A DNA stretch of 32,000 bases from Moraxella nasovis (GTDB lineage: Bacteria > Pseudomonadota > Gammaproteobacteria > Pseudomonadales > Moraxellaceae). Within the stretch, counting starts at the first letter, position 1, and each line of letters opens with the position of its first letter. Shown piece by piece: positions 1-28,830 of this stretch. A model generated the notes under the pieces. It did not search any database, was not told where the DNA came from, and worked only from the letters and a program-made list of their open reading frames with translations. The position numbers and the translations under genes were made by a program. The DNA is taken from assembly GCF_022701215.1 (NCBI RefSeq), contig NZ_CP089976.1, positions 840,001-872,000 of the forward strand, read 5' to 3'.

Positions 1-3
1 AGG

Positions 4-127
4 GTTCACCACCGCTTAGGTGGCTTAGAAAATTGTATAATTTTAAAATATGTTTACCACCGCTTAGGTGGCTTAGAAAGTTATATGATTGTAAAAAAGG
101 TTTACCACTGCAGAAGTGGCTTAGAAA
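4..127 (+). CRISPR. Three 28-nt type I-F-like CRISPR repeats (4-31, 52-79, 100-127) separated by 20-nt AT-rich, mutually related pseudo-spacers. Not a normal adaptive array; candidate repeat mimic or mini-array. May continue left of the window.
   Basis: R1 GTTCACCACCGCTTAGGTGGCTTAGAAA; R2 GTTTACCACCGCTTAGGTGGCTTAGAAA; R3 GTTTACCACTGCAGAAGTGGCTTAGAAA. Same 5+5+5+5+8 layout as the canonical I-F repeat GTTCA-CTGCC-GTATA-GGCAG-CTAAGAAA. R3 keeps the stem through a compensatory change (CCACT/AGTGG). Period is 48 nt. Confidence 0.6.
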
Positions 128-161
128 ATTATATGATTGTAAATCAGTAATAACTACCAAT

Positions 162-190
162 AAACCCCCAAACTTTGGGGGTTTATTTTT
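162..190. terminator. Bidirectional intrinsic terminator shared by the repeat cluster (+) and the endolysin gene (-)
   Basis: AAACCCCCAAACTTTGGGGGTTT hairpin, followed by ATTTTT on the plus strand and TTTATT on the minus strand. Confidence 0.75.
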
Positions 191-758
191 ACTTAAGCCC
201 TACTAGATACGTTGTCCGACCGCCACGCTTAACAGCTGTTAGAAACTGACTTCGCTGGTCACCAGCATTTGACTTGTAGCCTAAATGTATCCATGTGCTA
301 TTTTCGTCAGGGAATTCTAAAATAAGCTGGTCAAACTTTTTTAGCTTGTCTTTTAAAAAGTTAGCAATTTGTCGTGTTGTGCCAAATTCAGGACACTTAA
401 AGTCAATTGCTCGCCCAAAAGTGTGTGCTGATGTATTAGACCCACCCACCGCACGATTGACATTGGGCGAACGATAACCGCTAGATATATGAATGGGTTT
501 TCCAAGCAGGTCTCTGACAGGTTGCCACAGATTTACGCTACTATCTATCAAGTTTTGCAATACCCCAGCATCAGGGATATTATCAATGCCACGAGCTTTT
601 GCGGTATTGCTGTGTAATAGCTCGTTTAAGCTGATGTTTTGCGTGATTTTAATCGTCTTGCCTACAGCTAAAGCGTGCTTTAATGCACGCTGTGACTGCA
701 CCCCCCACACGCCGTCAGCAGGCGTGTTTATTTGTTCTTGAATGTGTTTGATGTTCAC
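189..758 (-). CDS. Endolysin, peptidase M15 (VanY / L-Ala-D-Glu peptidase-like) with an N-terminal peptidoglycan-binding-like segment
   Basis: Motif SGYRSPNVNRAVGGSNTSAHTFGRAIDF followed by WIHLGY (Zn ligands H..D...H). DGVWGVQSQRAL near the N-terminus. Confidence 0.85.
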   Translation of the reverse strand: MNIKHIQEQINTPADGVWGVQSQRALKHALAVGKTIKITQNISLNELLHSNTAKARGIDNIPDAGVLQNLIDSSVNLWQPVRDLLGKPIHISSGYRSPNVNRAVGGSNTSAHTFGRAIDFKCPEFGTTRQIANFLKDKLKKFDQLILEFPDENSTWIHLGYKSNAGDQRSQFLTAVKRGGRTTYLVGLK

Positions 759-1870
759 TCAAATCCCTCAACTTCTAAGGCGTCTGTGACTGCTGGTACT
801 TCAACGAGTTTAATCACACTAAGGCGATTTTCAAGCATAGCTTTAGTAATGCCTTTTGTGATGGTTGTGATGTCTTCTGGCAAGATTTTAACCGCTGCAG
901 CAGCCGTCAGTTTAGCTTGAGTTACCTTGTCATTTAAGGCGATAAGCTCATCAACGTCTTTTTGACTGATAATCTTATATTTGTCAATCTCTTGTCGCTT
1001 ATTGTATGCTATCTGCAAAGCTTGTTCAGCGGCTTTCACTCTAGTTTCAGTACTCTCAGGAATGCTGTCTAAGACAAGCCTTACTTCGTTTGCGTCTTCT
1101 TTTGCAGTATAATATTTTGAACTAAATAGACCAGCTGGCATATCATGTTTACCAGTTCTGTCTTTAAACTTAAAAACAAATTCATGTAAACCCTTACTAA
1201 ACGCATCGTCAAGATTAAGAAGAACCGCCCCATCAGGTGTAATGACAGTATCTTCATTAAAATTGATGGTTACGTCGCTGTGGTCATTTATAGCAATTAC
1301 CCGACCAATAAAATCTTTTAAGTTTACCTTAGGGGCTATAACGGGTTCTCCTTGATACGTAAGATGCAAATAAAACTGCAGAATACCATCATCACGCTTT
1401 TTGGCAGTGATATGCCAATCATCAGCTATTGGATAACTGGGCGTGCTTGTCTCATCTTTATGGTCTGAATGCTCCATCACTTCTGAATAATCACTATACC
1501 CATCATTATCGGTGTCTTTGTTATCAGGATTTGTGCCGTATTTTTCGTATTCATCATAATCTGTGATGCGGTCATTATCTGCATCTCTTTGTTTTTCGGT
1601 TAAAGCAACGGTTCTTAAAGCACGAGCCATTAATTTATCAAGCCCATCTAGGCGTGCCTTATTCTCACCATAATTTGCATCGATTTTTTCATTGATTTCA
1701 GCGATTTTTTTCTCAATGTCATCAATGCCTACCGTTTTATCGGTGCTTGTTGTTGTTTCGGTGTTGCTTGGCAACTTGTTAAGTTTATTATCAATCTTAG
1801 TCAAAAGCTCTTTAATCTCTATGATGTGTGTTGTGATAAGCTGTAATACGCTAGAAATGGTTGGTTTCAT
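755..1870 (-). CDS. Distal tail fibre / receptor-binding-like protein with N-terminal coiled coil and thrombospondin type-3-like Ca-binding repeats
   Basis: DADNDRITDYDEYEKYGTNPDNKDTDNDGYSDYSE matches the DxDxDGxxDxxE / GTdPxxxDTD pattern. Lies after gpJ and the fibre N-terminal gene. ATGA overlap with the endolysin. Confidence 0.5.
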   Translation of the reverse strand: MKPTISSVLQLITTHIIEIKELLTKIDNKLNKLPSNTETTTSTDKTVGIDDIEKKIAEINEKIDANYGENKARLDGLDKLMARALRTVALTEKQRDADNDRITDYDEYEKYGTNPDNKDTDNDGYSDYSEVMEHSDHKDETSTPSYPIADDWHITAKKRDDGILQFYLHLTYQGEPVIAPKVNLKDFIGRVIAINDHSDVTINFNEDTVITPDGAVLLNLDDAFSKGLHEFVFKFKDRTGKHDMPAGLFSSKYYTAKEDANEVRLVLDSIPESTETRVKAAEQALQIAYNKRQEIDKYKIISQKDVDELIALNDKVTQAKLTAAAAVKILPEDITTITKGITKAMLENRLSVIKLVEVPAVTDALEVEGFE

Positions 1871-3726: not shown

Positions 3727-6700
3727 AAGTACTTAAATTTAATGTTTTGATGGTCAATAAAATCACCTAAAAGCGTGATTGAGCTTTCACCGCCCCAGTT
3801 ATTGACGATAAGGCGTATCGTATGTTCGCCAGCTGGCAGTTGCAAATTAACGATTTTTCGTTCACGACCGCTATGCTGAAATTGCAACGTTTCATCAACA
3901 TAACAAAATAACGTATCATCAGCATAAACAAGCTTTTGGCTAACTTGTGTTGCCCTTTCAACAGTTACTTTCATCTCGTACATCGTAGCAGGAGTTTGAG
4001 AGCCATCACGCTGTGATGTAACGTGCTGAAGTCCGCCCAAAGACGGCAATACATGGCTATACTCGTAATCAAAGATTTTGGCAAACTTAGATGATTCTTG
4101 TTTAAACTGCCTAATTTGTTCTTCAAGCTCACGTATTTCACGACTAAGATTAATAATTAAATCGTTTTTTTCCGATTTTTCGGACAAAATTTTGTCAACG
4201 TTAAAATCCCAGCCCAAAAGTGAAAAAAGAGTTTGATTTTTTTCTTTTAGCAGTCGCTCTTTATCAGCCAGCTGTGCTTTAGCTTGTTCATCAAATGCAC
4301 CAAATTTATTAGGCTGGTTAATATCAGCTTGTGTTAAAACACGATTGGCATAATAAACCTTATAATGCGGAAATAAGACGGTTTCATCTAGCTGATTAAT
4401 GCCAATTTTACCTTGCAAGCGTTCAGCCTTAACAATACCACCAAACACACCGCTTTTGGCAGTCAGGTTGCCTTGTGCATCCACGATAAACTTATCATTA
4501 ATGTTAATTGTACCACCGCTGATGATGACATCGCCTTGCATATACATACCAGCAGGTACAGTTATGCCATTTATCGTCTGTGGGTGAGTTAATACCGTAA
4601 ACGGCTTTTTACCATCATTAGGATTGCCCAAATAAAACTGGTCAGCGTTAATGCCAAATCGGCTAGTAACACGCCCATTTTTAAGCTCGCTGATAAGCCC
4701 ATAGCCACTGATGACACCGTTATTATCCACCGTAACCGCTTTAATCGCACTTACGCCATCAATAGACTGCTCTACGTTACGGATTTTGGTGCTATAGCCG
4801 TTTACGTTCGTTTCAAGCTGTCGCACCTTTTCGCTGGTGGCTCGGATAGTACCGCCTTGCTGTGTAACCGTACTTGTCAAGCTGTTTAAGGCACTAGCAT
4901 TCGCTTTATTGCCAAGGTTTTGATTAAGCTGGGTTAGCTGTTGCCCTTGACTTGTAATATCACGCCCCTGCTGGCTAACGGTGCTTGATAGGCTACTGAC
5001 AACTGAACTGTCTGCTTTGCCATTTAATCTTGAATTAAACTGCCGAACTTGCCCACTGACCACGTTATCGGTTTGGGCTTTGGTGTAGTAGTTATTTAAG
5101 GCACTGGCACTAGCTTTACTCCCCAAATCTGCCCTTAATCGCTCGGTTTTTTCGCTTAACGCTTGTGTAGCCGTTGTCTGTGTCTGCTTAAACTCGGTTA
5201 AGTCAGCACTCACATCATCTATCGCCCCATCTATCACCTTTAAGCTTGCATTTGATACAGATATACGGCTTGTGTCACGGATATTGGTGCGATAAAAATG
5301 CAGTGCGTTATTACCGCTTATCCCAGCGTTCCACGTCAGCTGTTGGGGTGTGCCGTTGGCTGTGATACGCCCAATGCTATTTGCCCCTGCTGCACTTGAG
5401 TTATAAACAAGTAGCTCACTTTGGGGGTCGGTGGTGATACTAACTAGCACCTTTTGCCCTGTAGCTATGTTTTTTACGATGGGATAACTTGCCACCAAAA
5501 ACTGGTCCGTTGTACTATTTGTGGTATTTTGTAATAAGTTTTTAGAATTAAGCACCCCATCAAAGCGTGATTGCAAGCCATCAAGCCGTGATGATGCCGC
5601 CTGTGTGTTATCACTAATGGCGTTTACCTGCTGTACTACCCCTGCTACAGCCCTATCATTAGCCGTCTTGTAGCCATTTAGCTCTGATAAGGTTTGGCGG
5701 TTGGCGTCGCTGACATCATCAATACGCTGGGTTAAGCCTGTTTGCAGTCCGTTTAACAGCCCACGCACTTCGCCTGTTTTGGCATTGATGGCTTGCGTGC
5801 GGTTTTGGATTTCTTGATTGATGGCTGCCGTGCGGTTTTGGATTTCTGTCGCAAGATTCGTCTCATTTTGTCCGCTCTTATCATAGGCGGTGTTAATCTT
5901 ACCACGCAACGCATTATCTAGCATATCGCCTGTGATGTCATCAGATAATAGCGATAAAATCTGGCTGGTATCAGCAGACGTGGTAATCGTTTGCCACTCG
6001 CTCCAAGTACTCACATTGCCCAGCTTATCCACCGACCTTGCACGGTAATGGCGTGTCAGATTGCCTTGTAAGCCTGTAATATTAGCCGTGTTGGTCGGAT
6101 AGGCATATTGCCCAAGAATGCTAGTTGTTTGCTTATCATCACTCACCTCAATCTCGGCAAAGGCAATGTCTGTATCATCAGAATATTGCCATGATAAATC
6201 TATGCCAAATAATATGCCTTTACCGCTAAAGCTTGATAATGGCTTAGGCGGTGCGGTTTTATCGGTGATGGTGGTCTGATGGCTTAGCGTATAGCGACTG
6301 CTGTTGCCAAAGCCGTCCACCGCTTTTACTCGTGCCAGATATTCACCTGCTACTGCGTTATCAATATCAATACTAGTAGCGGTCGTTTCACCTAATAGCT
6401 TCCAGCCTGTGCCGTCTTTATTGTATTCTACGACATAGTAATCTGCTGCTAAGACTTGTGAATAATCAATGGTGATTTTGATTTGATTTAAGCCTTGGTG
6501 CGTGTAGTTAAACTGGCTGATATTGACAGATGACGGTGCGGTAAGTACCTGCTCATGCACTTTAACAGGCTTAGGCGGTATGGTGTAGCCGTGTTCTGCT
6601 ACGCTAAATTTAGCGATTTCATACTGCAACGCGGTGATGCTAAAGGTGTGGTCATCGTTATGCGTCATGTGCAAAATGCGGTAATTATCTGCCCCACCCA

Positions 6701-8636
6701 TGCTCCACACATCGCCAATATTCACTTTATCGCTAAGCAGTAGCTCATTGCCGTTTATGCTTTCAACGCTTAATGTGCGACCGCCTACGATGATGCTATC
6801 TTGGTCTTTGGGGGTGCGGTCTAGTACGACATGGCGTGTCTTGGTGGCGGTTAGGGTAACTTGATTGATGGTGCGTTCTTGGCGTGTGCTTGTGCGATAA
6901 ATATACAAATGACTGTTGCCACTTTTCCCCACGTTCCACGTCATCACAGCACGAGCTGTGCCATCTACCACGTTTATGCGACCAATCTCGTTTGCCGCCG
7001 CTGACTCTGAATTATAAATCAGATATTCACCATCGGTGGCACTAAGGCTGATGGTAACTTTATCGCCATCATTAAAAGCTTGCTTTAATGCCAAGCCCAC
7101 AATCAGATGATTAGATGTGGTGGTAGGGGTCATGCTTTCAACCAAATTAGCCGACCCCACAATCCGCCCACTAAGACCAGCGCGGCGGTTATCGGTAATA
7201 CTAATCACATCGCCCACTTTTGGGATAAAGCCGTCAAGCCCTACGCTAAAGCTTACCGTTTGTGTTTGCATCTGCTCGGATAATAACGCCCAGCGTCCTG
7301 CTCTGATGGCTTGGGTGCGACTGGTACAGCCAAAGGCGTTAATCTTAACGATACGTATGCCGTATTTGGCTATCGCTTGTTCATCTTTAACGTGAACATA
7401 ATCGGTCTTAAAGTCATTGTCAGGGTCATCATAAGCAATTTGGGCGATGGTGTGGCGGTCTCTTGCTCGTGTGCCTGTATAAACAAACTCGCCATTGACC
7501 ACGTTTGCCGTATTAAAATGATAACTCGGCTCTTTTGGCGTGTCAGCGTCAAAGACGATTTTTTCGCCGTCCCAAAAGCTCATCGCACGAAAGATAGATG
7601 ATAGGTTTTGTAAAACGCTAAACGCATTTTGGGCTTGCTGAATATACACATTGACACGAAAACGTGGTTCACGTCCGCCACGCCCATCGTCCACCAGCTC
7701 ATCGCAGTACTGGGCTAATTGGTACAAGCTCCATTTATCTACTTTGCCATCTAGCCGATTGCCCAGCCCATATCGTGTATGCGTGCAGATGTCGTATAGC
7801 ACCCATGCAGGGTTATCAGAATACGCCATCTTAAATCTGCCGTCCCAAAGCCCTGTATAAATGCGTGTTACAGGGTCATAATTGGTAGGTACTTGGATAA
7901 TCATGCCACGCATACGCACCGATAATTTGGCAATATTACCAAAGGTATTTGCGTCATATTTTAGGGCAAGTAGGGCGGTGCAAGGATAGCGTAATTTTGC
8001 GTCCACAACTTCGGTCAAAGCGATAATGCGCATTTTATCGCCGATAAGCTCGCTGTTTTGGTTGGGCGTTTTTCTACGAACTCGGATTGTCCAATGGTTT
8101 TTAGCTTTTGGCAGGTTGATTCTATGGCTTTTTTGATAGCCTTGCGACGCTTTTTCGTCAATAAAGGTATCTAATACGGTCAAATACGCCCCGTTATCAG
8201 TTTGTAAATCAATGGCATAATCAATGCGATAAGCCCCCACATCGCCATTGTCATGCGTTTTGTATAAGCCATTAAAGCCAATGCGAACCACCACAGCAGA
8301 CAGCTGGGTATTGGTAATCTCTTTGACAAAATGACGTGAACTATTTAGCTCAACGCCCACGCCAATCTCGTTTTCAACCGCATTAAAGCCGTCAATGTGT
8401 GTTTGGTCCAATGTACCAGCACGATACGACCATTCCACGCCATCAAAGTTAGGCTCGCCATTGTCATTGATGATAGGCGTGCCATCTAATTTAATAGATT
8501 TACCGCCATCAACAAGCCCTGCCACTTCACCTTCTGATAGCCCATACATCGCTTGTAATACGGTTGTGCTTTGGGCGGTGTCTTTGGCGATGTTTGGCTT
8601 GGCGTCTTTTTTTTTCTTAGCACCTTGAATTTGCAT
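3723..8636 (-). CDS. Tail tip / host-specificity protein, lambda gpJ-like (1637 aa) with FN3 domains, two inserted paralogous modules and a coiled-coil / C-terminal receptor-binding region
   Basis: Position after the gpI homologue and size. J-like core segments (YDICTHTRYGLG, VGDVISITDNRRAG, RFGINADQFYLG). Start chosen at the ATG at 8636, just after the gpI stop; an alternative upstream ATG at 8687 overlaps gpI. Confidence 0.9.
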   Translation of the reverse strand: MQIQGAKKKKDAKPNIAKDTAQSTTVLQAMYGLSEGEVAGLVDGGKSIKLDGTPIINDNGEPNFDGVEWSYRAGTLDQTHIDGFNAVENEIGVGVELNSSRHFVKEITNTQLSAVVVRIGFNGLYKTHDNGDVGAYRIDYAIDLQTDNGAYLTVLDTFIDEKASQGYQKSHRINLPKAKNHWTIRVRRKTPNQNSELIGDKMRIIALTEVVDAKLRYPCTALLALKYDANTFGNIAKLSVRMRGMIIQVPTNYDPVTRIYTGLWDGRFKMAYSDNPAWVLYDICTHTRYGLGNRLDGKVDKWSLYQLAQYCDELVDDGRGGREPRFRVNVYIQQAQNAFSVLQNLSSIFRAMSFWDGEKIVFDADTPKEPSYHFNTANVVNGEFVYTGTRARDRHTIAQIAYDDPDNDFKTDYVHVKDEQAIAKYGIRIVKINAFGCTSRTQAIRAGRWALLSEQMQTQTVSFSVGLDGFIPKVGDVISITDNRRAGLSGRIVGSANLVESMTPTTTSNHLIVGLALKQAFNDGDKVTISLSATDGEYLIYNSESAAANEIGRINVVDGTARAVMTWNVGKSGNSHLYIYRTSTRQERTINQVTLTATKTRHVVLDRTPKDQDSIIVGGRTLSVESINGNELLLSDKVNIGDVWSMGGADNYRILHMTHNDDHTFSITALQYEIAKFSVAEHGYTIPPKPVKVHEQVLTAPSSVNISQFNYTHQGLNQIKITIDYSQVLAADYYVVEYNKDGTGWKLLGETTATSIDIDNAVAGEYLARVKAVDGFGNSSRYTLSHQTTITDKTAPPKPLSSFSGKGILFGIDLSWQYSDDTDIAFAEIEVSDDKQTTSILGQYAYPTNTANITGLQGNLTRHYRARSVDKLGNVSTWSEWQTITTSADTSQILSLLSDDITGDMLDNALRGKINTAYDKSGQNETNLATEIQNRTAAINQEIQNRTQAINAKTGEVRGLLNGLQTGLTQRIDDVSDANRQTLSELNGYKTANDRAVAGVVQQVNAISDNTQAASSRLDGLQSRFDGVLNSKNLLQNTTNSTTDQFLVASYPIVKNIATGQKVLVSITTDPQSELLVYNSSAAGANSIGRITANGTPQQLTWNAGISGNNALHFYRTNIRDTSRISVSNASLKVIDGAIDDVSADLTEFKQTQTTATQALSEKTERLRADLGSKASASALNNYYTKAQTDNVVSGQVRQFNSRLNGKADSSVVSSLSSTVSQQGRDITSQGQQLTQLNQNLGNKANASALNSLTSTVTQQGGTIRATSEKVRQLETNVNGYSTKIRNVEQSIDGVSAIKAVTVDNNGVISGYGLISELKNGRVTSRFGINADQFYLGNPNDGKKPFTVLTHPQTINGITVPAGMYMQGDVIISGGTININDKFIVDAQGNLTAKSGVFGGIVKAERLQGKIGINQLDETVLFPHYKVYYANRVLTQADINQPNKFGAFDEQAKAQLADKERLLKEKNQTLFSLLGWDFNVDKILSEKSEKNDLIINLSREIRELEEQIRQFKQESSKFAKIFDYEYSHVLPSLGGLQHVTSQRDGSQTPATMYEMKVTVERATQVSQKLVYADDTLFCYVDETLQFQHSGRERKIVNLQLPAGEHTIRLIVNNWGGESSITLLGDFIDHQNIKFKYF

Positions 8637-25774: not shown

Positions 25775-26185
25775 ATGTATTACCCCATCGCCATTGAAAG
25801 CCCTGCCAATGATAATGAATGTTTTGGCGTGATTGTCCCTGACTTACCAGGCTGTTTTAGTGCAGGAAACAGTTTAGATGATGCCATCAAAAGCGTTCAT
25901 GAAGCCATCAGCCTACACCTTGACGGATTAGCAAAGGACGGTGATGACATTCCACTTGCCAAAAATGTTGCAGACCATGCAAAAAACCCAGACTATCAAG
26001 GCATGACATGGGCGGTGGTAGATATTGACCTATCTGCCTATATGGGTAAAAGCGAAAAAATCAACGTAACCTTGCCATCTCGTCTGATTGCACGGATTGA
26101 TGAAAAAGTATCCGCTCATAAATCGCTATATAAAAGCCGTAGCAACTATTTGGCACAGCTTGCCAGTCGTGATTTGATGGCGTAA
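25775..26185 (+). CDS. hicB: HicB-family antitoxin with a C-terminal RHH domain
   Basis: MYYPIAIE....FGVIVPDLPGCFSAGNSLDDAI..HEAI.LHL is the typical HicB N-domain. C-terminus is KINVTLPSRLIARIDE...SRSNYLAQLA. Start at the ATG at 25775 with a GGAG SD. Confidence 0.88.
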   Translation: MYYPIAIESPANDNECFGVIVPDLPGCFSAGNSLDDAIKSVHEAISLHLDGLAKDGDDIPLAKNVADHAKNPDYQGMTWAVVDIDLSAYMGKSEKINVTLPSRLIARIDEKVSAHKSLYKSRSNYLAQLASRDLMA

Positions 26186-27129: not shown

Positions 27130-28032
27130 TTATTTTGACATCTCGTATTGCTTTTTGAATTTCTCACAAATTCCCATGATTTTGTCAATAAAAGCTAAAA
27201 AGTTCATTGTAGGATTAAATAGTTGGCTTATCAAAAGCTTATTTTGTAGGCTGTTTTCAAGCTTTTTTAATACCAAATCATCAAGTTCATCATTTATCTT
27301 GTTAATATCAAAATCAGCCCATTCATCTTTGGTAGGTTTATTGGCGGTTTCCCATCTATCAGGGTCAATCTTAAAAGTGTCTTGGTATATCTCACCTGTT
27401 TTAAAATCCACAAACTCGCTTTGGTAGCTATCATCTGTCTTTTGCTTATCAATGATGAAAAATAGCACATCAATGGCGGTATCATCAAAAGCGTTGCTAA
27501 TACGACTACACTCTGCTAAGCGGTTTCCGATAATCGTGCGAAACGTCTTTTCTGTCGCACGATAGCCCACGCCTGCCGATAAGATATAAAAACCGTATCT
27601 TTTGGTATGCTTTAATGATTTTAAAACAAAAATATCATCTACCACGCCTGATTTTTTCCAAGTAAATTCGCTTTGGATAATCGTCCGCTCGCTGTCTGAT
27701 AGCTCTTTAAACTTGATAGAAAACGGTGGATTCATCACCACACAATCTGCTACATGGTCATCATTAAAATCAAAAAATGAGCCGTGATAAACCTTGCTAT
27801 TAGGGTAATTATCCAAAAACACTTCGCACGCTTTGTCTTGAATTTCTACGCCATAGACGTGCTTAGGGCTTATATGCTGTTCTAACTGCCCTGAACCTAC
27901 CGCTCCATCAAATACGCTAACGCTATCGCCTACATACTGTTTGACTTTATCAGCGACATATTGGCGTAAGGCTTGCCCTGTGATGAATTCAGCATGGGCT
28001 TTGGCGATTTTTCGGTTATTGTGTTCTTTCAT
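27130..28032 (-). CDS. N6-adenine DNA methyltransferase (orphan, phage-encoded)
   Basis: Motif I VFDGAVGSGQL and motif IV VVMNPPFS in gamma-class order. Confidence 0.8.
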   Translation of the reverse strand: MKEHNNRKIAKAHAEFITGQALRQYVADKVKQYVGDSVSVFDGAVGSGQLEQHISPKHVYGVEIQDKACEVFLDNYPNSKVYHGSFFDFNDDHVADCVVMNPPFSIKFKELSDSERTIIQSEFTWKKSGVVDDIFVLKSLKHTKRYGFYILSAGVGYRATEKTFRTIIGNRLAECSRISNAFDDTAIDVLFFIIDKQKTDDSYQSEFVDFKTGEIYQDTFKIDPDRWETANKPTKDEWADFDINKINDELDDLVLKKLENSLQNKLLISQLFNPTMNFLAFIDKIMGICEKFKKQYEMSK

Positions 28033-28056: not shown

Positions 28057-28830
28057 TTAACCATGTTCTTTCATTTCCCCCAACCTATCAATAATCTTTC
28101 GTTCACGTTCTGACAGCTCCCATATTTGGGCTTGTTTGGCTTGTTTGGCTTGTTTGGCTTGTTTGGCTTGTTTGGCTATGCGGTCAGATACCAAAAGCCC
28201 TGCCCCAAACATCTGCTTTTTATGCGACTTTTGGCTATCTAGTTGTCTGATAAAAACGCACTCATCTACTCTAACTTCAAAATCTACATCTATGTTATTA
28301 AAATCTTTTGCCATTAGTACATTGGGGGGATATTGATATTTTGGCAACTTATTAGCTTTGGCAAACAAGGCATTTATCGCCATGGCAAGACGTGGGGCGG
28401 ATTTGGCTTTAATATGTGGTGTTAAATTCGTTATAAATGCCGTTTTAACTTCTACCCCATTGCCATAGATGATTTCACTATTGGTAAAAATAACCGTCAA
28501 TCCATATTCTCTTGCCACCGTGCTAAACGCCGTCATGTTTTGACAAAATAAAAAGAATTTTACGCCACGTTCTTGATACCATCTGCAAATCTTAGAAAGT
28601 ATGCTAAATGGCGGATTATCAATGACAATATCATCATCGCCATAATCCACCGCTTGGTAATCGCCATCAGGATAAAAGGGGCGTACTACGTTTAAACCAT
28701 CTAAATTCATTATCTCATCATGCACATATTGACGGACAGCGTCATAGACAGCAGGTGGCGTAAATGCATCATCGCTTGTTGTGCGTTTTTCAAACTTTTG
28801 TAGCCAGTTGTAGTATTCTTTACTGTTCAT
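28057..28830 (-). CDS. Second putative DNA (adenine) methyltransferase with a C-terminal (AKQ)5 repeat
   Basis: Catalytic-type motif IVIDNPPFS. Possible AdoMet motif QMFGAGLL lies downstream (beta-class-like order). Class not certain. Confidence 0.55.
   Translation of the reverse strand: MNSKEYYNWLQKFEKRTTSDDAFTPPAVYDAVRQYVHDEIMNLDGLNVVRPFYPDGDYQAVDYGDDDIVIDNPPFSILSKICRWYQERGVKFFLFCQNMTAFSTVAREYGLTVIFTNSEIIYGNGVEVKTAFITNLTPHIKAKSAPRLAMAINALFAKANKLPKYQYPPNVLMAKDFNNIDVDFEVRVDECVFIRQLDSQKSHKKQMFGAGLLVSDRIAKQAKQAKQAKQAKQAQIWELSERERKIIDRLGEMKEHG
28129..28177. repeat. Perfect 9-bp tandem repeat GGCTTGTTT x5 (plus a partial unit) inside the methyltransferase gene
   Basis: Read directly from the sequence. 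Encodes AKQAKQAKQAKQAKQ in frame. Confidence 0.95.

Follow-up and report, generated by a model that had tools for sequence, protein, structure and literature searches.

Several kinds of small RNA on mobile elements imitate the repeats of type I-F CRISPR systems. Prophage-borne type I-F regulatory mini-arrays were reported in 2023 for Pseudomonas aeruginosa, Acinetobacter baumannii and Moraxella osloensis FDAARGOS_1130 (Shmakov et al., 2023; PMC10120712). The M. osloensis mini-array contains three repeats and two near-identical spacers. The short guides of these mini-arrays were predicted to act on the cas8f promoter, beside a CC protospacer-adjacent motif (PAM) and with mismatches at position 6, and their stem-loops vary in sequence and keep their structure. 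In that study, host I-F1 loci co-occurring with such prophages contained no mini-array of their own. Cracr elements are viral pseudo-repeat/pseudo-spacer/pseudo-repeat units outside cas loci; those of type I-F have guides of 17–21 nucleotides (nt), with a median of 19, and mature RNAs of 46–49 nt that form Csy complexes with four Csy3 subunits (10.1101/2024.10.29.618823). In multi-guide Cracr arrays, which are aimed at promoter variants of related strains, some guides are similar or identical. Cracrs are linked to anti-CRISPR loci. The same study recognizes a Cracr operationally by at least nine PAM-proximal matches to a known CreR/CreA guide; a size rule (viral guides 17–21 nt, bacterial guides 23–27 nt) by which AcrIF24 is said to discriminate has also been proposed. 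Work on Cracrs from 2024 to 2026 broadened the principle of the mini-arrays and put it to the test. RNA anti-CRISPRs (Racrs), exemplified by RacrIF1, are phage I-F repeat mimics that are bound by Cas6f and Cas7f and compete with CRISPR RNAs (crRNAs); they often lie in acr loci, their hosts usually have the matching subtype, and they are defined as solitary, standing apart from any other repeat, whether full or partial (Camara-Wilpert et al., 2023; PMC10651486). Here, 32,000 nt of Moraxella nasovis DNA (NZ_CP089976.1, positions 840,001–872,000; this whole stretch is the window) were analysed. The element at its left end is read, with moderate confidence, as a prophage-encoded type I-F crRNA-like regulatory mini-array (Cracr array) that would act by repression of the cas operon and by competition for Cas proteins.

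Window positions 4–147 are made up of three head-to-tail 48-nt copies, each comprising a 28-nt element and exactly 20 nt of AT-rich sequence. These amount to two complete repeat/guide/repeat units with 20-nt guides, and a third guide without a distal hairpin. The features of the array and of its end are as follows.

4–31, plus strand: unit 1, type I-F repeat look-alike, GTTCA-CCACC-GCTTA-GGTGG-CTTAGAAA, with a 5-bp stem, a 5-nt loop and an 8-nt 3′ handle (RF01317, 34.9 bits, E = 3.6e-6)
32–51, plus strand: guide-like segment S1, ATTGTATAATTTTAAAATAT, 20 nt
52–79, plus strand: unit 2, type I-F repeat look-alike, GTTTACCACCGCTTAGGTGGCTTAGAAA, with hairpin CCACCGCTTAGGTGG (RF01317, 31.6 bits, E = 3.7e-5)
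80–99, plus strand: guide-like segment S2, GTTATATGATTGTAAAAAAG, 20 nt
100–127, plus strand: unit 3, type I-F repeat look-alike, GTTTA-CCACT-GCAGA-AGTGG-CTTAGAAA, with a compensatory stem change (RF01317, 28.9 bits, E = 2.6e-4)
128–147, plus strand: guide-like segment S3, ATTATATGATTGTAAATCAG, 20 nt, with no further repeat hairpin behind it
159–187, both strands: bidirectional intrinsic terminator with a 13-bp stem and a T-run on each strand, which ends the array and the convergent endolysin gene and is present in the minimum-free-energy (MFE) and centroid folds

A tandem-repeat search and TRF both identified the 48-nt unit, in 2.9–3 copies at 3/4–143/147, the later copies being 85% and 77% identical to copy 1 without indels. 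A degenerate 28-nt pattern describing the three units was found at 4, 52 and 100 only in the window, with 0.00 matches expected from 100 shuffles. The Rfam family CRISPR-DR4 (RF01317), the type I-F repeat family, aligns all three units over their full length. Their scores lie under its gathering score of 35 bits, and in sequence the units are genuine I-F look-alikes slightly below the curated cut-off, as expected of degenerate pseudo-repeats. Each has its stem at 6–10/16–20, a 5-nt loop, a closing C6–G20 pair and the 8-nt handle CTTAGAAA, in which every invariant position is retained, and all three hairpins and the terminator were predicted in the MFE and centroid RNA folds. Unit 3 differs from units 1 and 2 by the paired change C10>T / G16>A, which keeps the 5-bp stem, and by two loop changes besides. 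In a set of 20 related units, taken from phages, plasmids and host loci, stem pairing holds in 100% of cells, with covariation of 5/5 pairs. The guide-like segments are 14/20, 14/20 and 17/20 identical in pairwise comparison, with a consensus ATTRTATRATTKTAAA over positions 1–16 and divergence at positions 17–20. The terminator abuts the endolysin stop codon at 189, which lies 41 nt from the end of the array; leftwards, the array may extend beyond the window start. The original prediction had described three type I-F repeat look-alikes, a 48-nt tandem unit with related 20-nt spacers, a compensatory stem change and a bidirectional terminator shared with the endolysin gene. All of these were upheld, the terminator now being placed at 159–187.

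Which repeats do the units imitate? True I-F arrays with a 60-nt period and a near-identical repeat were found in a scan of representative genomes. The array repeat of Psychrobacter sp. HD31, GTTCACCACCGCATAGGTGGCTTAGAAA, is one loop base away from unit 1, a Moraxella genome (L028) contains 104 copies of a repeat, ATTCACCACCGCATAGGTGGCTTAGAAA, that is 2 nt from unit 1, and several gammaproteobacterial metagenome-assembled genomes carry similar I-F repeats. Host pseudo-repeats are as close. The distal pseudo-repeat hairpin of a Moraxella atlantae I-F locus (L025), CCACC-GCTTA-GGTGG, is identical to that of units 1 and 2, including the unusual GCTTA loop, and the proximal one, GTT-CTACT-GCAAA-AGTAG-CTTAGCAA, resembles unit 3. 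A single base also separates unit 3 from a solitary unit of an Endozoicomonas I-F locus (L004), located upstream of cas1. Because both types occur as host pseudo-repeats, unit 3 is not merely a mutated unit 1. M. nasovis has a recorded type I-F Cas6f (P0160); the lysogen therefore has the CRISPR subtype that matches the array. Upstream of cas1 in the Endozoicomonas locus (~790–860, minus strand), the solitary unit GTTTACCACTGCACAAGTGGCTTAGAAA is accompanied by 24 nt of AT-rich sequence and by a partial repeat; the resident array has a different repeat, GTTATCCGCTGCATAGGCGGCTTAGAAA.

Three kinds of Moraxella I-F locus were found to contain a crRNA-like RNA (crlRNA) gene, running opposite to the cas genes. 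It lies in the intergenic region that separates cas2/3 from the effector genes, and this region also holds a CC-flanked partial target. Their guides and targets are as follows.

L021–L024 (I-F1): guide ATAATTTGGTTTTAAAAAAT, 20 nt, after handle CTTAGGAA; target CC-ATAATATGGTTTTAAAATGA, ~60–80 nt upstream of csy1; mismatch at position 6, with pairing at 16 of the first 17 positions
L025: guide GTAACACTTATGTATTGTCA, 20 nt; target CC-GTAACACTTATATATTGTGC; mismatches at position 12 and then at 19–20
L028: guide of 27 nt; target CC-ACTATTATAAATAAATAA; mismatches at positions 6 and 12

In M. atlantae, the proximal pseudo-repeat, the 20-nt guide and the distal pseudo-repeat stand in a row on the minus strand of the cas2/3–cas7fv intergenic region (L025, ~7771–7838). 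These crlRNA genes bear the sequence hallmarks of CreR-type autoregulators (10.1101/2023.03.10.532045; PMC10120712). The host guides of L021 and L025 are exactly 20 nt long, compared with the 23–27 nt reported as typical of bacterial CreR/CreA. Among the loci obtained, the Cas6f closest to that of M. nasovis is that of L021–L024, at 70% identity. Across the I-F1 and I-F2 loci of Moraxella, crlRNA gene and target together span ~6444–6571 in L021 (likewise in L022–L024), ~7771–7889 in L025, 5262–5457 in L028 and 3587–3972 in L094. Two of these loci have further features of their own. The complete I-F1 locus of L021/L022 adjoins a Rep3-family replication gene (215–1545), with iteron-like repeats upstream of cas1, an arrangement that suggests a plasmid-borne CRISPR-Cas system. 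L028 has an extra 398-amino-acid gene without a Pfam match (5458–6654) between cas2/3 and csy1, directly downstream of the crlRNA target.

The window guides were compared with the CC-flanked sites of L021–L024, L025 and L028. Each L021-type locus holds 850–961 CC-flanked 20-mers, 38–57 of which are at least 80% A+T. Of all the 850–961 sites, the one that matches the window guides best is the host crlRNA's own target, with a summed identity to the three guides of 40–43 versus 31–33 for the runner-up. Individually, the guides match this target at 13–15 of 20 positions (p = 0.002–0.01 per guide, composition-preserving shuffles); S1 matches the CC-flanked crlRNA target of L021/L023/L024 in register at 14–15/20 (p = 0.003–0.005 against shuffles). 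The conserved stretch of S1–S3, positions 1–16, has the same extent as the host guide–target pairing. No comparable likeness to the L025 or L028 targets was found. The window guides therefore appear to be homologous to the guide/target family of the L021-type loci, the I-F1 lineage nearest to M. nasovis. Two other candidates were set aside: an S1 match in L009 (at 7496), which looked like an inverted repeat unit, lies within coding sequence, and internal promoters in the guides (TATAAT in S1, TATGAT in S2 and S3) had no support from a promoter scan. These boxes are better explained by guides that copy a promoter target.

How would such an array act? Transcription would probably start from a promoter left of the window, run rightwards and stop at the terminator at 159–187. 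Host Cas6f would bind each 5-bp hairpin and cut after G20, its 3′ base; this cleavage position is established for Cas6f. If Cas6f cuts there, two mature RNAs are predicted.

24–71, plus strand: predicted mature 48-nt RNA 1, with 8-nt handle CUUAGAAA, S1 as guide and, at its 3′ end, unit 2 up to nt 20
72–119, plus strand: predicted mature 48-nt RNA 2, derived in the same way, with handle, S2 and the hairpin of unit 3

The predicted size agrees with the 46- and 49-nt mature RNAs of I-F Cracrs (10.1101/2024.10.29.618823). RNAs of 48 nt would assemble shortened Csy/Cascade complexes with about four Cas7f subunits instead of six. Guided by S1–S3, these complexes would bind a CC-flanked site in the promoter of the host csy (cas8f–cas6f) operon without cleaving it, Cas2/3 not being recruited, and would thereby imitate the host autoregulatory CreR-type RNA and keep cas expression low. 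Having three related guides would allow the array to cover the promoter variants of several related strains. The array RNAs would also compete for Cas proteins with immune crRNAs, and titration is probably part of the effect. For the window array, all of this is inferred, from transcription and processing through complex formation to the actual target and any effect on immunity; in other I-F examples, 46/49-nt RNAs, four-Csy3 complexes, guide-dependent promoter repression and multiplexed arrays against promoter variants were obtained experimentally (10.1101/2024.10.29.618823).

The window belongs to a lambdoid siphovirus prophage, with genes for terminase, a portal-like protein, tape-measure protein, tail proteins L, K-like and J, RusA and endolysin. 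The 32 kb contain no cas genes, and the neighbours of the array are phage lysis and tail genes. Two further features bear on this setting.

189–758, minus strand: endolysin of the prophage (Peptidase_M15_3), with 100% identity to a protein of Moraxella nasovis
26129–26160, minus strand: protospacer-like site, matching a spacer of a Moraxella I-F array (L028, position 14784) at 28/32 positions (BLAST E = 2.9e-5, one of 321 spacers)

The endolysin has its next relatives in Moraxella prophages. Behind the endolysin gene, related prophages of this genus carry a short accessory region and then the integrase and the att site, and this synteny places the array in the prophage accessory region. No phage genome matched the first 4 kb of the window by megablast. 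From the 28/32 spacer match it follows that Moraxella I-F immunity targets phages of this lineage. The dinucleotide flanking the protospacer-like site is CA, not CC, which suggests that the spacer was taken from a relative of this phage or that the site has escaped through its PAM. Elsewhere in the window, two adjacent minus-strand open reading frames (ORFs; 27130–28032 and 28057–28830) each have the NPPF motif typical of DNA N6-adenine methyltransferases, the second additionally carrying a (QAK)n repeat. To judge by their motifs, they may be orphan methylases of the prophage with an anti-restriction role. Between the tail-fibre genes and the endolysin lies a 371-amino-acid protein (755–1870, minus strand) that combines a GA-like domain with a bacterial TSP3 calcium-binding repeat, an unusual cargo for this position in the lysis module.

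Similar elements were found on other mobile DNA. A prophage of Moraxella marmotae strain ZJ142, present as two copies that diverge only past the integrase (L019/L020), contains four I-F-like hairpin units at ~6999–7222 on the plus strand, in the accessory region between endolysin and integrase. Its endolysin is 62% identical to that of the window. The stems of the four units all differ (CAGGC, CAGAC, CGACC, CGGTC), loop type and handle are alike, and the linkers are irregular (26–60 nt). The array sits between a divergent promoter region and a terminator, beside an Aca2 gene (7293–7748, minus strand) that scores above the Pfam cut-off. Among the small proteins beside it, Aca2 gave the sole Pfam/PDB match and no known Acr could be named. 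Its units A and B are preceded by 9-nt segments (CACAGGTTG and CAACCTGTG, respectively) that are complementary to each other. The Shewanella baltica conjugative plasmid pSB01-1 (NZ_CP146611.1; L091) carries eight I-F-like units at ~4810–5190, with 14–21-nt spacers and a terminator at the end; window units 1 and 3 have near-identical counterparts in two of these units. The array adjoins a small upstream ORF and a DUF1870 gene, which we take to belong to the Aca2/YdiL Pfam family. Both the M. marmotae array and the plasmid array have an AT-rich promoter-like region upstream and a terminator.

Other finds are of a different build. The IMG/VR contig UViG_3300045988_120157 (L001) has two I-F-like units at 463–700, each with its own TTGACA-type promoter and terminator. 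On this contig, a 5′ leader (ACAGAGG / GCAGAGG) pairs with a CCTCTGCAC segment right before the T-run, and the sequence after the handle of the second unit matches a CC-flanked site by the cas7fv start of M. atlantae (L025, 7994) at 15/20 positions. Two Acinetobacter plasmids (L092 and L093) carry orphan mini-arrays with the repeat GTTCACCACCGCACAGGTGGCTTAGAAA, unique 32-nt spacers, a 60-nt period and no cas genes. These arrays, with three spacers at 2501–2700 of L092 and one at 2501–2590 of L093, adjoin Dot/Icm transfer genes and runs of small ORFs, and are probably tools of inter-plasmid conflict. Of the IMG/VR scans for the same spacing, one returned nothing and the other 62 chance matches inside conserved phage genes; a guide-consensus scan returned nothing. 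A metagenome scan for the same repeat ends with a 14–26-nt gap gave seven chance matches in coding sequence.

Several observations weigh against the reading of the element as a regulatory Cracr array. No sigma-70-like promoter was found by the promoter scan on the plus strand within 1–190, the third guide has no Cas6f hairpin downstream, no acr or aca gene is visible beside the array inside the window, and two IMG/VR scans yielded no second array of the same spacing or guide family. As the original prediction had proposed, the 20-nt segments were searched for targets. No seed-perfect CC-flanked target of S1–S3 was present in the window, the phage loci or five kinds of I-F locus, nor did S1–S3 match the phage or plasmid collections or the window; the search did bring out the host crlRNA target as the best CC-flanked likeness in L021-type loci. 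The guides mismatch that target at positions 3 and 9, of which position 3 lies in the seed. They therefore fit poorly to the L021-type promoters and, on these alignments, would probably not bind them. AT-rich guides and AT-rich promoters are also partly alike by composition alone, for which the shuffle test controls. S1–S3 presumably have their true target in the allele of M. nasovis or in those of other hosts. The lack of an exact target in the loci searched speaks for an untargeted, Racr-like decoy, whose hairpins would soak up Cas6f and Cas7f into aberrant subcomplexes and whose 20-nt segments would be linkers from tandem duplication. RacrIF1 works in this way and dose-dependently (PMC10651486), tandem copies would raise the dose, plain duplication is expected to give related spacers, and Cracr RNAs are reported to compete with crRNAs too. 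However, Racr candidates are defined as solitary, whereas the window guides are each flanked by a handle and a hairpin like a complete crRNA. Moreover, the linker is exactly 20 nt three times over, the guide length of the host crlRNA in L021 and L025; guide positions 1–16 are kept and 17–20 are not; and the linkers resemble the host regulatory target in register beside the CC PAM. A decoy of this kind is considered unlikely. Of the two mechanisms in the original prediction, the one named second, short-guide regulatory crRNAs, is thus favoured over the headline one, an untargeted decoy, the linkers being length-exact, seed-conserved and target-like. There is a small chance that the guides aim, via the Csy repressor, at some other AT-rich promoter of the host or of a rival phage (receptor, other defence or competing prophage), or alternatively that each 48-nt unit is self-amplified via its own −10-like box (TATAAT/TATGAT).

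Could the units instead be chromosomal, either the degenerate trailer of a host I-F array or a host regulatory mini-array beside the prophage end? The left flank lies outside the window, divergence is greatest in unit 3, at the 3′ end, which is common for trailer repeats, an I-F system exists somewhere on the same M. nasovis chromosome, and host crlRNA genes use very similar pseudo-repeats. On the other hand, the spacers are 20 nt and mutually related rather than 32 nt and unique, and array and endolysin share a terminator and are only 41 nt apart, too little for a prophage end or att site to fit in. Related Moraxella prophages continue with an accessory region and then the integrase, that of M. 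marmotae holding its repeat-like array inside the mobile element, and the host crlRNA genes seen have two pseudo-repeats and sit between cas2/3 and effector genes; a chromosomal origin is therefore quite improbable. An orphan mini-array competent for interference against competing mobile elements (superinfection exclusion) has precedents on viruses and plasmids, among them the two Acinetobacter plasmids with nearly the same repeat and unique 32-nt spacers. It is very unlikely here, the window guides being 12 nt shorter than I-F spacers, interrelated and without a match in the phage and plasmid collections or the window; short partial pairing also favours binding without Cas2/3 cleavage (PMC10120712). 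Finally, AT-rich segments alternating with a GC hairpin, near the expected place of the integration module, might be protein-binding sites in a 48-nt tandem (such as recombination arm sites or iterons) or a cluster of terminator-like hairpins, with a chance likeness to I-F repeats. Covariance-model E values of 3.6e-6 to 2.6e-4, zero matches expected by shuffling, the distance of 1–2 nt to real I-F repeats of the same bacterial family and the invariant positions of the handle CTTAGAAA, all kept, make such a coincidence extremely unlikely. That the element is some I-F-directed RNA counter-defence, whatever its mode of action, is held to be likely. The general idea of a phage-borne RNA counter-measure against I-F, as originally predicted, is well supported by comparison, namely by the host Cas6f, near-equal Moraxellaceae repeats and Aca2-linked arrays elsewhere.

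What would the regulatory mini-array mean? If the reading is true, it would be a compact natural case of a phage turning host CRISPR autoregulation against the host. It would extend the known prophage I-F regulatory mini-arrays to M. nasovis, which is incremental and not surprising. The novelty was overestimated in the original prediction, since prophage I-F mini-arrays, including that of M. osloensis, and 17–21-nt Cracr arrays had already been described. Two further arrays, the four-unit one of the M. marmotae prophage and the eight-unit one of the Shewanella plasmid, look unreported. The 20-nt host guides of Moraxella bear on the viral/bacterial guide size rule for AcrIF24. Such arrays mark anti-defence loci and offer ready short-guide scaffolds; the genus Moraxella has already yielded many protein anti-CRISPRs.

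How, then, does the element stand among the known systems? It falls outside the definition of a canonical array, because its spacers are 20 nt long and related (48-nt period) and there are no cas genes in the window. The orphan arrays of L092 and L093 share its I-F repeat family and the lack of adjacent cas genes, but have unique 32-nt spacers and a 60-nt period. With Racrs it shares repeat mimicry of the host subtype in an intergenic region of a mobile element; however, Racrs have no handle–guide–hairpin unit and no direction to DNA binding, whereas the window element is a regular tandem of crRNA-like units. Three units in 48-nt tandem are not solitary, and the element thus falls outside the Racr definition too. 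Host CreR (10.1101/2023.03.10.532045) and CreA (CreTA; PMC9458426) likewise consist of a degenerate repeat, a short guide and a degenerate repeat, and the window guides are AT-rich and promoter-like. The host versions have one guide, lie between cas2/3 and the effector genes and have their target in the same intergenic region, whereas the window element is prophage-borne and has at least three units.

The closest likenesses are to the prophage mini-arrays and Cracrs. The M. osloensis mini-array, compared here by its description, comes from the same genus and is also prophage-borne and of type I-F; it belongs to another host species and prophage. The window array differs from it in 1) a third guide after the last repeat, 2) its position directly behind the endolysin gene, and 3) the terminator in common with that gene. 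Differences from the described Cracrs are also evident: at least nine PAM-proximal matches were not found for the window guides in the host loci obtained; no acrIF24 is visible within the window; two Moraxella host loci have a 20-nt host guide and not one of 23–27 nt; and the main text of the preprint makes no mention of Moraxella (10.1101/2024.10.29.618823). In common with Cracrs, the window array lies on a prophage outside any CRISPR-cas locus within 32 kb, and its 20-nt guides fall within 17–21 nt. To judge from the sequence, the window element has all the structural features of a Cracr array.

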